From Candidatus Thorarchaeota archaeon SMTZ1-45 (GTDB lineage: Archaea; Asgardarchaeota; Thorarchaeia; Thorarchaeales; Thorarchaeaceae), in the NCBI GenBank assembly GCA_001563335.1, contig LRSL01000069.1, positions 115,129 to 179,128 of the forward strand: a stretch of 64,000 nt of DNA, given 5' to 3'. The notes below the pieces were generated by a model. That model was not told the DNA's origin, did not search any database, and was given only the letters and a program-made list of their open reading frames with translations. Each line of letters begins with the position of its first letter. The first letter of the stretch is position 1. Of this stretch, positions 3,832 through 62,600 are shown in pieces. The position numbers and the translations under genes were made by a program.

Positions 3832-4380
3832 TTGCAATTCAAAAATACTCGACAAACTTCTGATAAGAAAGTAATGAAACAATTGGCAATTGGAACACGA
3901 CACGTACTAAAAGAGCCAATTCTAAAGAAGCTTCAAGAAGGATCTGTGCTAAGTGAAGTTCAATTAGAAACTCTCCTTATCGATTTGGTTTTAGAAGACA
4001 GTCTGGGATCACATATCACATATGAAGATAAAGCAACAATCCGAACAAAATATGGGACCAGGTCTCGTGGCGTTTCAAGAGGGGCATTCAATAGAACTTT
4101 GAATCAGGCTCGTCGAAACTTATCCCGTTGTTTTTACACTATGTTGTTACTAGCATACTTAGGTCTCTTTGAATTAACAATATTTCGTCCTTTCGAAGAA
4201 GTTGCTGCTCGTATAGGTGATTACAGAAGAATCCGCGATATTCTCGCTGGAAAAGTTGAGCTAACAACAGAAGAACTCGAAAGCATTAGAGCTACTGAAA
4301 GAACAATCATGGCTGCACTTGACGAGCTTTCATCCTCACTAGCGCTTAAATCAGAGATATCCAAAAAGAAGTCTGATTAA
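3832..4380 (+). CDS. Conserved archaeal hypothetical protein, putative HTH DNA-binding
   Basis: VSRGAFNRTLNQARRN helix motif followed by YTMLLLAYLG; resembles a TACK/Asgard uncharacterised family (from recall). Confidence 0.65.
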   Translation: MQFKNTRQTSDKKVMKQLAIGTRHVLKEPILKKLQEGSVLSEVQLETLLIDLVLEDSLGSHITYEDKATIRTKYGTRSRGVSRGAFNRTLNQARRNLSRCFYTMLLLAYLGLFELTIFRPFEEVAARIGDYRRIRDILAGKVELTTEELESIRATERTIMAALDELSSSLALKSEISKKKSD

Positions 4381-4384
4381 TCAA

Positions 4385-4396
4385 CAAAGAAAGAAA
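4385..4396 (-). terminator. U-rich terminator of the putative ncRNA
   Basis: Minus strand reads TTTCTTTCTTTG 7 nt after the closing helix. Confidence 0.45.
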
Positions 4397-4403
4397 GCGG
4401 CTC

Positions 4404-4587
4404 GAGCGTGTCGCACCAAGGAGCAATCCAACGTATTTGAGCACAGTCCTTCTCCAGCACTCAAGCAACCATTTAGGTCATCCTGGAGGTTTGTTTGAGG
4501 AGATAGAGATGACAATGACGAGTGCCTGAAACGTCGGAAAGGTGTGTCCTATCCACGTCGGCTTACTTGCCATTGCACGACACACTC
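4404..4587 (-). ncRNA. Putative rod-shaped structured ncRNA (~185 nt)
   Basis: On the minus strand: 13-bp closing helix with 3 G-U pairs, at least six further nested helices, and a downstream U-rich tract. Confidence 0.65.
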
Positions 4588-4786
4588 ATATTATACATGG
4601 TAACAATTATACATAGTTCTATTCTTAGAACGGGAATTTTCGTCATATTTTCATGTTCTATTTGGCGCTTAATCAAACAAATTGATACATGTATTACAAT
4701 TTATACAATTTTGAATACCCGAAGAAACCTTAATCGTAATCTCATGGTGACAATAGATTGTACACCATACCAGTAGTGATGACAAC

Positions 4787-6037
4787 TTGGTTGATGATAA
4801 TAGTCGTGATAGAATCTTCAAAGCAGTCAGGCAACGTATCAAAGAAACTGACGAAATAGAAAGAATACAGGTCATGGCAAATGCAATTGGAGATCGTCGT
4901 TACAGAGACCTAGTAGATATAGTTTCTAGAATTGAAAGTGAAGAAGGCTGGTCCACAGCGCTTGAATACCTACTGAAAGCACAACATCAAAAGTATTCAT
5001 CACCATTTATCATTGGTCAAGACAAAACAAACCTGGAAGAGTTGAAGTATCGAGAGATGGTATTCGAACTATTATCATGTAAAGGACTAGAACCAATCAC
5101 CCCAGGAACAACTGATCTTCTGAAGAATCTGGACCAAGAATCCTCACTTATTGATGCTTCCCGTGTTTTTATAGACATTGTAGAAAAGTTAGCTATTGAA
5201 CAAATACATACTGATGACACACTATTCTTTGACTTCTCTTATAATATTTCAATCTCTAAAGAAACTGTGAAAATCTTAGATCAAGTCAGAAACAAGAATA
5301 TTCATACCATCTCTCTTGAAAGGAAGGAAGAACAATTCAATATCGAACCTCTATGGTACACTGAGTATGGTCGACTTGCCTTGTCAACACTCGGAATCAA
5401 AGGTTTTGTAGTGAACACTGACACATTTGATAGTATACTATCAATAATACAAGTGCCTAGTCTTATTAGAACAAAGAATGTCAATAAATTCTCTTTCAAG
5501 AGTAAAAAGAGAGATTCGTGGACTCGCCCCACAAATCAAACATACAAAAATCTACTGGATTATCTTATTCATCATGATGTGAATAACTTAGGCTTACTAG
5601 GAAGTAGACACTCTATACCACTACTAAATATTCTGCTTGATGGAGCTTCTTCCACATATGAAAATTTACAGTCTTCAAGTGGTTACAGAGAGATACTCAA
5701 TTGTATGAATGCACATCTCTCTGTTCGTGATATTGAATCAATTCTTGTTTTAGAAAAATCATCACAAATGAAGAACACACGGATTGCGACAATGGCAATT
5801 CTAGCTATTGGTAGCTTTTATCATGAATCATCTGCTACGACACTTGTAGATTTGTTGTGTAAAAGTAAAAACAATGAGATAGAGGAAGCTGCTACAAAGG
5901 CACTTGAAAGTGTCTACAAAAGATGTCCTGAGGCTGATTATATTATTACTACTTCATTAAACAATGAATGCAAAAATCGCAGAAAACTAACCAACCTATA
6001 TCGGCGTCTAAGCAAAGAAAAACCATTGTATTATTAG
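4787..6037 (+). CDS. Hypothetical protein with C-terminal HEAT-like repeats
   Basis: 416-aa ORF; AILAIGSF...LVDLLC...EEAATKAL helical repeats. Confidence 0.65.
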   Translation: MVDDNSRDRIFKAVRQRIKETDEIERIQVMANAIGDRRYRDLVDIVSRIESEEGWSTALEYLLKAQHQKYSSPFIIGQDKTNLEELKYREMVFELLSCKGLEPITPGTTDLLKNLDQESSLIDASRVFIDIVEKLAIEQIHTDDTLFFDFSYNISISKETVKILDQVRNKNIHTISLERKEEQFNIEPLWYTEYGRLALSTLGIKGFVVNTDTFDSILSIIQVPSLIRTKNVNKFSFKSKKRDSWTRPTNQTYKNLLDYLIHHDVNNLGLLGSRHSIPLLNILLDGASSTYENLQSSSGYREILNCMNAHLSVRDIESILVLEKSSQMKNTRIATMAILAIGSFYHESSATTLVDLLCKSKNNEIEEAATKALESVYKRCPEADYIITTSLNNECKNRRKLTNLYRRLSKEKPLYY

Positions 6038-15495: not shown

Positions 15496-15605
15496 GGGGC
15501 GGTAGTCTAGCCCGGCTATGATGTCTCGCTTACACCGAGAAACCATTGAAGCTCTTTGCTCTTTGGACTCGAGGGTCGCTGGTTCAAATCCGGCCCGCCC
15601 CACCA
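15496..15605 (+). tRNA. tRNA-Val(TAC) with a 32-nt intron at 44/45 (15542-15573)
   Basis: GGGGCGG/CCGCCCC acceptor, TCTCG-CTTACAC-CGAGA anticodon arm, T arm, encoded CCA; BHB central helix CGAG/CTCG. Confidence 0.88.
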
Positions 15606-19715: not shown

Positions 19716-19834
19716 GCGGGAGTTGCCAAGCCCGGTCAAAGGCGGCGGACTTAAGATCGCATGAAATAAAGGGGTCATGTGAATAGGCTATCCGCTCTCG
19801 TAGGAGTCCGCGGGTTCGAATCCCGCCTCCCGCA
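19716..19834 (+). tRNA. tRNA-Leu(TAA) with a canonical 37/38 intron (19756-19789)
   Basis: GCGGGAG/CTCCCGC acceptor, long variable arm, BHB central helix CTTA/TAGG. Confidence 0.93.
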
Positions 19835-59425: not shown

Positions 59426-59533
59426 GGGCTCGTGGCGCAGACAGGTAGCGCAGCAGGCTTTTAACCTGAGGATCAAGAGAGTCATCTCTTGCTCGGGAAC
59501 TGGCCGCGGGTTCAAATCCCGCCGAGCCCGCCA
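59426..59533 (+). tRNA. tRNA-Lys(TTT) with a 31-nt intron at 43/44 or 42/43 (~59470-59500)
   Basis: GGGCTCG/CGAGCCC acceptor, GCAGG-CTTTTAA-CCTG; intron hairpin CAAGAGA/TCTCTTG. Confidence 0.87.
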
Positions 59534-59685: not shown

Positions 59686-62600
59686 ATGGCAACGGGCACA
59701 CAAGATCGAGATAAGTATTGGCCAGTAATAGAAGCATTCTTTGGTCAGTATGGACTAGTAGGTCAGCATCTCGACTCATTTAATCGGTTCATAAGAGAAG
59801 AGCTTCAACAAGTAGTAGATAGTGTTGGTAAGCTCACGCCAAAGATTGAAGGTTATGTAGTGGAACTGGGTGATATCCATGTGGATGAACCTTCTATTCG
59901 TGAGGCTGATGGTAGTGAACACAAACTCTACCCCAATGAAGCTAGGATTAGAAACCTTACCTATGCAAGCAAACTCCACTTGGACATGACACCTGTCCGA
60001 AAAGAAGGTTCTGTGTCAACCAGGCTTGAAACTATGAGGATTTACATTGGGGACTTACCAATCATGCTTCGAAGTGAGAAGTGTCATCTAAATGGTCTTT
60101 CAGATGAGAACCTCATAAAACATGGTGAAGATCCCAAAGATCCTGGTGGTTATTTCATAATCAACGGTTCAGAGCGAGTTCTTGTCACACAAGAAGATTT
60201 GGCGCCTAATAGAATTCTAATTGAAGAGGCAAGCAAGAGTTCAAGCTATACCCACATTGCAAAAGTCTTCTCAACCTCGCGTGGTTTCAGAGCACCAGTG
60301 ACAATTGAGCGGAAGCGAACTGGTGAACTAAGAGTATCATTCCCATCAGTGCCCGGTAAGATACCTCTGGCAATTCTTCTAAAAGCGTTAGGTATTGAAT
60401 CAGACAGAGATATTGTTGATGTCATTTCAGATGATGATGAGATACGAAACGAGCTCATTGTTACTATTGAACAATCGGCCCCAATCAATGCACCCACAGG
60501 TGAAGAGGATGAATCTACGCGCTCCAATGCACTAGACTTCATTGGAAAGCGTGTTGCGGTGGGTCAGACAAAAGAATACCGCCTTGCTCGTGCAGAAAAA
60601 GTGCTAGATCGCTATCTTCTCCCGCACATTGGAACTGAAGAGGATAGTCGTCTACACAAGGCATACTACCTTGGACAAATGGTAGAGCGTCTTCTAGAGT
60701 TAGTACTCACCAAACGATCTCCTGACGATAAGGACCATTATGCGAACAAGAGGCTGAAACTCTCCGGAGACCTTCTCATGTCACTATTCAGGGTTGCTCT
60801 GTATTCTCTGACTCGTGATATTAAATATCAATTAGAACGTACAGCGGTTCGAGGTCGTAAGCCAAATATCAGGACTGCAGTGCGTGCTGATGTAATAACA
60901 CAGAGGCTAAAACATGCGCTCGCTACAGGAAACTGGGTCGGAGGTAAAGCTGGCGTATCACAGCTTCTTGACCGTACTAACTACATATCCTCATTATCAC
61001 ACCTTAGACGAGTTGTTTCACCACTCTCTCGCTCACAACCACACTTCGAGGCACGAGATCTTCATTCGACTCATTGGGGCAAGATCTGTCCCAACGAAAC
61101 TCCTGAAGGACCAAACTGTGGTCTTGTAAAAAACATTGCAATGATGGCATACATCTCAGTTGGAACCGATGAGGCGGCAGTAGAACGTGCCCTCCTTAAA
61201 GCTGAGGTAGAACCTATCGAGAAACTCCGTGGAAAACGTGGCGCAAAATGGGCTGATATTTTTCTGAATGGTCGACTAGTAGGTGTTCATCCTGCTCCAC
61301 AAGTCTTGGTAAAGACAATGAGACAGAAGCGTCGTGCTGGTGAGATTGACAATCAAATGAATATTGCATATTATGAAGATACCCACGAGGTTCAAGTTAA
61401 CTGCGATGCTGGTCGTGTAAGGAGGCCTGTCATTGTAGTTGAGAACGGAAAAAGCCGTCTTACTGATGAACATCTAAGAATGGTGCTTGAAACAGAGTGG
61501 GGATTCTTAGATCTTCTCCGTAATGGAAATGTGGAATTCATCGATGCGGAGGAGGAAGAGAACACACTGATTGCCATGTACCCTGAAGATATTGGTCCTA
61601 GCACAACTCACCTAGAGATAGTGCCTTCCACTATTTTGGGTATTTCTGCAGCTCTTATTCCATTCCCTGAGCGAAATCAGTCGCCTCGTAATGTCTACAT
61701 GGCTGGAATGGCAAAACAATCAGTAGGCGTACCTGCATCCAATTTCAGATACAGAGCTGACACGCGCTCACATTTCTTCCACTATCCTCAGATTCCACTT
61801 GTGAAGACCCGCGCAATGGACTCAATTGGCTATGAGGAACGTCCTGCTGGCCAAAACTTCATAGTAGCCATTCTTTCCTTTGAAGGTTATAACATTGAAG
61901 ATGCTCTCATTATGAATAAAGCATCTATTGAGAGAGGCTTGGGTAGAAGCACTTTCGCTAGAGTATACGAAAGCGAAGAGCGAAAATATCCTGGAGGTCA
62001 AGAGGATAGATTCGAAATTCCCGACCGAAGTGTTAGAGGCTATAGAGCTTCAGAATCCTACAGAAACCTCGGCGAGGATGGTATCATAGAAACTGAGGTC
62101 GAAGTTATGGGTGGTGACGTTCTCATTGGCAGAACCTCTCCCCCGAGATTCTTGGAAGAATATTCCGAGTTTGAGATAGCTTCTCCGAATCGTCGTGAAA
62201 CATCTATTGCTGTACGTCATGGAGAAGCTGGTGTAGTTGACAGCGTAATTCTCACAGAAACTATCGATGGTAACCGTCTGGTCAAGGTAAAGGTCCGAGA
62301 CCTAAGAATCCCTGAGTTGGGTGACAAATATGCTTCCCGACATGGACAGAAAGGTGTAATCGGATACATAGTACCACAGCAAGACCTTCCATTCACAGAA
62401 GATGGAGTGGTTCCAGATCTGTTAATCAATCCACATGCCATCCCAAGCAGAATGACCATTGGTCAGATCTTGGAGATGGTTGCTGGAAAAGCTGCTTGCA
62501 TGGTGGGTAAGCAACAAGACGCCTCTCCCTTCTGTGGTGTTACAGAGGAGGAGCTCTTTGACACGCTCAAGAAACATGGTCTGAAGCACAATGGTCGTGA

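Follow-up and report, generated by a model that had tools for sequence, protein, structure and literature searches.

A rod-shaped small RNA of a Thorarchaeota family, with an invariant loop core and a candidate target in the leader of a solute-binding-protein mRNA

What does the intergenic region at positions 4381-4786 encode in a 64,000-nucleotide stretch of the genome of Candidatus Thorarchaeota archaeon SMTZ1-45 (assembly GCA_001563335.1, contig LRSL01000069.1; the whole stretch is referred to as the window)? The region lies between two plus-strand open reading frames (ORFs), one of 182 amino acids (aa; 3832-4380) and one of 416 aa (4787-6037), and an earlier note, made from the sequence alone, had proposed that its minus strand carries a new, rod-shaped archaeal non-coding RNA with an exposed anti-Shine-Dalgarno loop. 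This proposal is borne out: the minus strand encodes a small RNA, transcribed independently and approximately 190-200 nucleotides (nt) long including its tail, which is present in single copy, has a promoter and terminator retained across the family, shows covariation, is represented among contigs from RNA libraries and matches no Rfam family. We consider it probable that this RNA is a trans-acting riboregulator that occludes the ribosome-binding site of a solute-binding-protein mRNA, a reading that rests on comparisons among genomes.

When folded, the minus strand of 4395-4590 forms a single long rod that ends in an apical hairpin, with a minimum free energy (MFE) of -72.2 kcal/mol against -54.9 ± 4.4 kcal/mol for dinucleotide shuffles (z = -3.95), and none of 200 shuffles folds as well. 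The plus strand gives a less stable fold (-64.6 kcal/mol; z = -2.85), which 2 of 200 shuffles equal. Of the helices drawn in the earlier note, the 13-bp GAGUGUGUCGUGC/GUGCGACACGCUC with its three G·U pairs, CCGACGU/ACGUUGG, UUCAGGCA/UGCUUGAG and GUCAUC/GAUGAC all appear in the MFE structure, and GGCAA/UUGCU is paired slightly differently. The same rod is formed by 19 of the 22 genus homologues folded singly, though the middle of the sequence has strongly diverged. A covariance model was built from 13 close sequences, with the RNAalifold consensus as its structure, and was then used to align 25 sequences from the genus and 52 from the family. Covariation was measured by counts of pairs, with shuffles and slid controls. 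In the genus alignment 91.3% of cells are paired (slid controls 31-44%) and 23 of 56 pairs show compensatory changes; in the family alignment 86.4% of cells are paired (slid controls 29-44%) and compensatory changes are seen in 49 of the 56 pairs. None of 500 shuffles is as good in either case. Such alignments are fitted to the structure, so that the pair counts lean towards it, a bias from which the single-sequence folds are free.

Selection on the RNA of one strand, as the earlier note had read from the G·U pairs, is also seen in the alignments, where G·U cells outnumber A·C cells by 266 to 24 (genus) and 394 to 49 (family), or about 8 to 1. Across copies the covariance model scores 180-219 bits in the minus-strand sense versus 22-30 bits on the other strand. 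The G·U excess, the model scores and the orientation of promoter and terminator thus indicate that the RNA is the minus strand. Copies of the RNA are 136-190 nt long, the middle of the rod being a variable spacer between two conserved ends. Two blocks are kept in sequence as well as in structure, namely the terminal helix (GAGUGUGUCGU/ACGACAC) and a 13-nt core of the apical loop. The terminal helix, P1, has changes on both sides in 8 of its 13 pairs in the family alignment. The apical stem is 100% paired in the genus alignment (helix 8) and 87% paired in the family alignment (helix 11), where 5 of its 7 pairs are compensatory.

The assembly (3.54 Mb, 87.7% complete, 42% G+C) contains a single full copy of the RNA, its other 15 matches being 16-36 nt long with E values of at least 1.25. 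BLAST detects the element in 22 of the 24 genus genomes searched and in none of 16 genomes from outside the genus; a conserved 256-nt query recovers it in 66 of 85 family genomes and 13 of 16 genera, and profile searching with inspection added the genera g28 and g18, bringing the RNA to 15 of the 16 genera. The one genome of the sixteenth genus is also without a match to the 182-aa gene, and the region may be unassembled there. In a locus of genus g25 (L371, G075:C7:35300-36450) the 182-aa gene is present and the RNA was not found downstream, which could be due to loss or rearrangement. In other Asgard families, a sequence-only profile (a shorter apical model carrying no base pairs, as RNAalifold gave none on the MAFFT alignment) produced weak matches in 7 of 124 genomes; in the four matches looked at in detail, the promoter and terminal helix are absent.

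Searching the window with Rfam 15 at gathering thresholds identifies six tRNAs only, and a permissive scan of 4200-4900 adds one chance-level match to sR20 (E = 3.5, 14.6 bits versus a gathering score of 44). Among the six tRNAs, three (15496-15602, 19716-19834 and 59426-59530) have matches of 105-119 nt, which fits intron-containing archaeal tRNA genes. The earlier note saw no signature of the signal recognition particle (SRP) RNA or RNase P RNA, and both are encoded on other contigs of the genome. The archaeal SRP RNA, at C24:47149-47457, scores 85.5 bits, under the Rfam gathering score of 96.5, and standard annotation would miss it. Since the 182-aa gene is widespread in Asgard archaea and no comparable RNA was found beside its orthologues, the RNA is, as far as these genomes indicate, an addition of one Thorarchaeota family and a member of no described RNA family. 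Long near-perfect inverted repeats can come from miniature inverted-repeat transposable elements, but that the rod is such an element, or a functionless chance hairpin, is hardly credible. The copy number and the covariation refute it: there is one copy per genome, in a fixed syntenic position over 15 genera, with compensatory changes in 49 of 56 pairs and a conserved promoter. Neither a match to Rfam, nor dispersed copies, nor a lack of conservation or covariation, which are among the outcomes that the earlier note had named as speaking against a new RNA, was encountered.

Public RNA data were also considered. Six RNA runs share a few sampled words with the region. Four runs, from at least three studies, were compared, and each gives one contig of 156-169 nt that lies wholly within 4385-4562; one contig is an insert of 4427-4562 flanked by adapter remnants. 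None of the contigs reaches either neighbouring gene, although the uncovered parts of 3900-5200 are no evidence that the neighbouring genes are silent. The contigs carry no information on strand, ends or level, and RNA libraries may hold DNA; they support, short of proof, a discrete small transcript from the RNA locus.

The apical loop (4506-4484) is exposed, as the earlier note stated; it contains CUCCUC and ACCUCC, and a U-rich tract (4398-4382) follows further along. The 13-nt core of the loop, UCUCUAUCUCCUC, is reproduced without change in 61 of the 62 unique copies; one substitution is seen in g28 and two in the genome G044. Of the nucleotides of the core, 10 of 13 stand unpaired in the loop of the MFE structure. 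The core is complementary to GAGGAGAUAGAGA, and its match in mRNA leaders, (G)AGGAGAUAGAGA, is made up of the Shine-Dalgarno (SD) sequence plus the spacer that follows it. For candidate targets in the own genome, 4,068 crude ORF starts were scored for duplex strength with the loop core (mean -5.3, standard deviation 3.2 kcal/mol). The best duplex (C31, -22.3 kcal/mol) is a perfect 13-mer that directly adjoins the start codon (ATG) for a 172-aa repeat protein with a signal peptide, and the second best (C118, -20.1 kcal/mol) belongs to a 620-aa secreted family-5 (Opp/Dpp-type) solute-binding protein (SBP_bac_5 E = 2.6e-45, scored on the G061 ortholog). The C118 leader consists of a 5' hairpin (UCCGA-UUUCGAC-UCGGA), a short A-rich linker, AGGAGAUAGAGAGAAU and the AUG.

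The C118 gene lies on the minus strand, with its start near 61157, and the same leader is present at L335, L337, L360 and other loci; a AACGCTTTTAT-like TATA region precedes the hairpin. The whole leader of this type, approximately 40 nt, is unusually conserved across genera. Within it, GGAGATAGAGA is intact in the own genome, in 21 of 30 best-ortholog loci (14 genera), and in 4 of 10 further loci: one of genus g25 (G081) and three of genus g29 (G097, G099 and G101), the latter being all the g29 loci among those ten with a match beginning at residue 1. In the own genome and in 22 of the 26 family genomes sampled, the 14-mer AGGAGATAGAGAGA is present, at 30 sites versus 6 for the reversed control, and at least 11 of the family sites are 3-17 nt upstream of binding-protein gene starts. 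Outside the family it is found in 9 of 124 genomes, at 10 sites versus 13 control sites (a hand tally). In the genomes sampled, the leader motif and the RNA thus appear to share one phylogenetic range.

Unrelated genes carry the same motif at their starts. The C31 family is present only in the own genus (the own genome and 13 of 26 other genus genomes) and falls into two diverged subfamilies, with GAGGAGATAGA at the start of 12 of its 14 members. The genomes G018 and G019 have a second gene with the same 11-13-mer at its start. Outside the genus, start regions with a perfect 13-mer belong to the solute-binding-protein genes already described, in four genomes of g23 and two of g27, to a membrane-protein gene in G044 and to an ABC ATPase-like gene in G056. 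In genus g28 the loop reads UUUCUAUCUCCUC in all three genomes, and the leaders of G092 and G093 read AGGAGAUAGAAAUGC, a double change from C-G to U-A that gives 15 contiguous pairs; the leader of the third genome, G094, has AGGAGAUAGAGA, which would result in a U·G wobble. A position under pairing would be expected to change in this way, though the change has been seen only once. Our case for the target therefore rests on the match within an exceptionally conserved leader, on the range shared with the RNA, and on unrelated genes with the same 11-13-mer at their starts. Ribosomal RNA is not a comparable candidate, its best duplexes with the family 16S and 23S being -15 to -18 kcal/mol, while the best duplexes of random 3-kb genome chunks average -14.3 kcal/mol and go as low as -24.8 kcal/mol. 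In one genome (L252, G065:C2:589938-592348) the 16S match spans 2,411 nt versus approximately 1,500, which denotes a large insertion (an intron or an expansion).

The mechanism that we favour can be laid out as follows. A TATA box and a palindromic operator over the position of the transcription factor B recognition element (BRE) would drive transcription, and an oligo-U tract would end it. The 5' and 3' ends of the product would join in the conserved terminal helix, leaving the tip of the rod to present a 23-nt C/U-rich loop. The core UCUCUAUCUCCUC would then pair with the SD sequence and spacer, (G)AGGAGAUAGAGA, 0-6 nt before a start codon, the contact covering UCUCUAUCUCCU on the RNA side and AGGAGAUAGAGA on the leader side. 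The main target would be the leader of the family-5 solute-binding-protein mRNA, joined in the own genus by the starts of small secreted repeat proteins. As the ribosome-binding site would be covered by the pairing, the most likely outcome is lower translation of the target mRNAs. From the comparative evidence we infer the pairing in the cell, the direction of its effect, and control by a factor bound to the palindrome. The earlier idea of an SD-pairing regulator is thus favoured in a narrower form, with an invariant loop that complements the SD sequence and spacer of one conserved leader and a few other starts.

Several observations weigh against pairing with these leaders. Three of the 13 core nucleotides lie in the top of the apical stem, which would need to open. 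Perfect complements of the 13-mer are not enriched over 86 family genomes, with approximately 62 non-self occurrences versus approximately 54 for the reversed control (a hand tally), and most of them are in-frame coding sequence, read as EEIE. Of 105 permutations of the 13-mer that keep the SD part, 9 also give a start-like match in the own genome (p of approximately 0.09); with this single-genome value, the case has to rest on conservation and co-distribution, for which related genomes are non-independent samples. GAAA leaders are found despite an unchanged loop in the C31 orthologues of G014 and G004 and in a G090 paralogue. In G044 both the loop (UCCCAAUCUCCUC) and the leader (AGGAGACAGAGA) have changed without compensation, leaving a 6-bp seed. 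GGAG is present at SD distance in only about 10% of crude ORF starts. Finally, loop pairing leaves the sequence conservation of the terminal helix unexplained; this helix might serve in protein binding, stability or processing.

Some of these observations suit a different function, in which the RNA belongs to a ribonucleoprotein or acts as a protein decoy. The loop and the terminal helix would then be protein sites spaced by a variable rod, in the manner of Y RNA, SRP RNA or 6S-like RNAs, and the leader match would be coincidental or secondary. The sequence conservation of precisely these two parts, joined by a rod of 136-190 nt, is in keeping with such a role, as are the invariance of the loop, stricter than most base-pairing seeds need, and the lack of genome-wide enrichment of perfect complements. 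An abundant and stable RNA would also account for the short contigs from RNA libraries, although contigs say nothing about level. However, this reading leaves the shared distribution of the leader motif and the g28 double change unexplained, no Rfam match was found (including Y RNA, 6S and SRP), and the neighbouring genes encode no RNA-binding or TROVE domain recognised by Pfam or NCBIfam. With respect to 6S RNA in particular, neither the MFE nor the consensus structure has a large central bubble, both running as an almost unbroken rod up to the apical loop, which is where the conserved single-stranded part lies; the 6S-like decoy put forward in the earlier note thus finds no support. Overall, we regard a protein-binding RNA of this kind as a rather unlikely but serious alternative. 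There is a lesser chance that the rod, with its conserved terminal helix and 3' tail, forms the centre of a ribonucleoprotein peculiar to Asgard archaea. The loop would tether this particle to a few secretory or transporter mRNAs, where, much like a guide RNA, it would bring in a protein activity (for example a nuclease, helicase or membrane-targeting factor) instead of only blocking the ribosome; a dedicated transcription factor would switch it through the palindrome.

A general anti-SD mimic is another conceivable role, in which the loop, resembling the 16S 3' end (GAUCACCUCCU), binds many SD-led mRNAs or competes with ribosomes for a global tuning of translation. Its two anti-SD-like motifs, CUCCUC and ACCUCC, are suggestive in this respect; a family 16S rRNA ends in GGAUCACCUCCU, and ahead of ORF starts GGAG is most frequent at -15 to -12. 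On the other hand, only 33 of the 62 unique copies retain the second of these motifs (as CCUCC), against 61 that retain the 13-mer, which reaches well past the SD complement. GGAG is scarce at crude ORF starts, and duplex strength drops sharply after the top two genes. We therefore think a general mimic improbable, and return to the regulator of a few specific leaders as the preferred reading.

The features of the RNA gene are collected in Table 1.

Table 1. Parts of the small RNA gene, with positions in the window.
Feature	Position	Strand	Description
Structured RNA core	4404..4587	-	184 nt, 5' GAGUGUGUCGU to 3' GCGACACGCUC; from fold, covariance model and covariation; model match on the minus strand covers exactly these positions (202.8 bits; plus strand 26.1 bits)
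Terminal helix P1, 5' strand	4575..4587	-	13 pairs; 97-98% of cells paired
Terminal helix P1, 3' strand	4404..4416	-	Same pairing evidence as the 5' strand; consensus in relatives ACGACAC[AG][CU]UC
Apical hairpin	4477..4513	-	7-bp stem (4513-4507 with 4483-4477) closing a 23-nt loop (4506-4484); MFE
Invariant 13-nt core UCUCUAUCUCCUC, proposed seed	4497..4509	-	Would pair with (G)AGGAGAUAGAGA in mRNA leaders; exact in 61/62 unique copies
3' tail GAGCC (single-stranded), then U-rich terminator GCUUUCUUUCUUUGUUG	4382..4403	-	Tail and T-run kept in most copies; consensus G[AU]GC[CU] plus T-run
TATA box TATGTATAAT	4606..4615	-	Conserved core TATGTA; spacing to the 5' end fixed
16-bp palindrome GTTCTAAGAATAGAAC	4616..4631	-	Family consensus GTTCTA[AG]GATTAGAAC; overlaps the BRE position; presumed transcription factor operator

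The limits of the gene differ from those first proposed. The range 4385-4614 had been given for the RNA, but the 5' end is near 4587, which makes 4590-4614 promoter, and the palindrome (4631-4616) falls just outside that range. Both of the ATGTATAAT TATA-like repeats that had been pointed out (4614-4606 and 4598-4590) are present; the upstream one is the conserved TATA box, and the downstream one is not conserved. At the other end, the U-rich tract abuts the stop codon (4380) of the convergent 182-aa ORF. Short ORFs within the region were examined as alternatives to an RNA gene and rejected. The ATG of a plus-strand mini-ORF (GAGGAG, 6 nt and an ATG, giving MTMTSA) is not conserved, being ATA, ATC or ACT in other genera, and the minus-strand ORFs of 8 and 44 aa are not conserved either, the changes in loop length not being multiples of three.

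The palindrome, followed directly by TATGTA, is invariant or nearly so in the genus alignment and across the family; the TATA variants are TATTTA in g28 and TATCTA in g18 and G044. The distance from TATGTA to the GAG at the 5' end is 22-23 nt in 60 of 62 unique copies, with two copies called at 18 nt. Archaeal TATA boxes are centred near -26, and the geometry of the RNA promoter fits this. In the own genome a second palindrome was not found, the next-best sites having at least two mismatches and no TATA. Such a singular palindrome, placed over the BRE position, suggests that the RNA is controlled by a dedicated, putative DNA-binding factor acting on it (in the form GTTCTAAGATTAGAAC). When one genome per GTDB species was scanned with the 22-mer pattern of palindrome plus TATA, 65 loci were found, 64 of them in archaeal metagenome-assembled genomes. 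The named genomes among these 64 are Thorarchaeota or Promethearchaeota, with one labelled Hermodarchaeota, and the remaining locus is a chance match in Streptococcus. The palindrome with TATGTA also occurs directly after a stop codon at four loci in other genera (L122, L123, L166 and L150), 22-61 nt before the ATG of a signal-peptide protein of 305-321 aa, which at L122 has a Thr-rich linker and a C-terminal membrane anchor. In these four genomes the promoter element is thus common to the RNA and a surface-protein gene; the own-genome ortholog (C109:96443-97216) is without it.

Across the family the gene order is conserved as hypF (minus strand), a 138-aa gene (plus), the 182-aa gene (plus), the RNA (minus), the 416-aa gene (plus) and an acetyl-CoA synthetase-like gene (plus). 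The neighbours say little about function: with Pfam the 182-aa protein has only a weak match to a DUF134 helix-turn-helix and the 416-aa protein only a weak HEAT match, NCBIfam gives no match for the 138-, 182- and 416-aa proteins, and a PDB sequence search with the 182-aa protein returns one chance match (E = 0.69). The fixed position raises the question of whether the element acts in cis, as antisense partner or terminator for the convergent 182-aa gene, or as leader or insulator for the divergent 416-aa gene. The RNA indeed adjoins the 182-aa gene 3' to 3' in all 22 loci examined, and the plus strand has no clear T-run from 4381 to approximately 4500, so that read-through could be antisense to the RNA. 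The RNA nevertheless has its own promoter and terminator, its covariation and G·U bias fit a folded minus-strand RNA, and it is retained in the 2 of 22 loci where the 416-aa gene is missing. Moreover, the 182-aa protein is encoded in 36 of 124 genomes of other Asgard families, and no comparable element was found downstream in 10 such loci (11 were considered, 10 of which had readable sequence). We hold a cis-acting role to be very improbable, and adjacency alone does not tie the RNA to its 182-aa neighbour. The 182-aa protein itself (3832-4380, plus strand) is an uncharacterised conserved Asgard protein encoded in single copy, with members in families f2, f3, f5, f6, f7, f12, f13, f19 and f21. 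In family f12, 6 of the 13 listed matches (for example G133:C22:15531-16007) have one in-frame stop, TGA or TAA, at similar positions.

How would such a regulator compare with known systems? In enterobacteria the trans-acting small RNA (sRNA) GcvB is reported to repress oppA, dppA and other transporter mRNAs (PMC3658540, PMC9299463, PMC4474525). The Thorarchaeota RNA resembles it as a stand-alone sRNA with a conserved single-stranded region that would pair near the ribosome-binding site of ABC-transporter peptide-binding-protein mRNAs. This likeness is functional only, as there is no sequence or Rfam relation, the host is archaeal, the RNA is one long rod, and its seed is C/U-rich and would act on the SD sequence and spacer themselves. 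The GcvB seed, R1, is G/U-rich, pairs with C/A-rich elements and depends on Hfq. The staphylococcal RNAIII and Rsa RNAs have C-rich loops that bind SD sequences and block initiation, with several short UCCC loops. Our RNA shares with them a C/U-rich hairpin loop directed at a purine-rich SD region, and differs from these bacterial RNAs in having a single, invariant 13-nt loop core that reaches into the spacer. With 6S RNA and Y RNA it has in common a size of approximately 180 nt and a rod whose 5' and 3' ends pair to close it, but it lacks an open-promoter-like central bubble, an Rfam match and a TROVE/Ro-type neighbour.

Among archaea, published work describes Methanosarcina mazei sRNA162 as a base-pairing sRNA (PMC3510493) and a phosphate ABC-transporter operon as the putative target of Haloferax volcanii sRNA132 (PMC6560208). 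The likeness lies in an intergenic archaeal sRNA for which base pairing on mRNAs, transporter operons included, is proposed or shown. The Thorarchaeota RNA is unlike both in its unrelated lineage and sequence, its distribution over one Thorarchaeota family, its unusually long rod, its palindromic promoter element, and its support, which is comparative only. Titles and abstracts returned by a literature search on non-coding RNA in Asgard archaea and Thorarchaeota describe no such RNA.

Of the known prokaryotes, Asgard archaea are those most closely related to eukaryotes, and their RNA-based regulation is almost wholly unexplored. The covariance model obtained here can be used for annotation of the family genomes, and the palindromic operator is one whose factor can be sought. 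Taking up peptides is considered a central part of the way Thorarchaeota live. Against this background, the locus offers a concrete, testable pair of putative regulator and target, comprising a defined promoter element, a 13-nt candidate seed and the conserved leader of a binding protein for peptide uptake.

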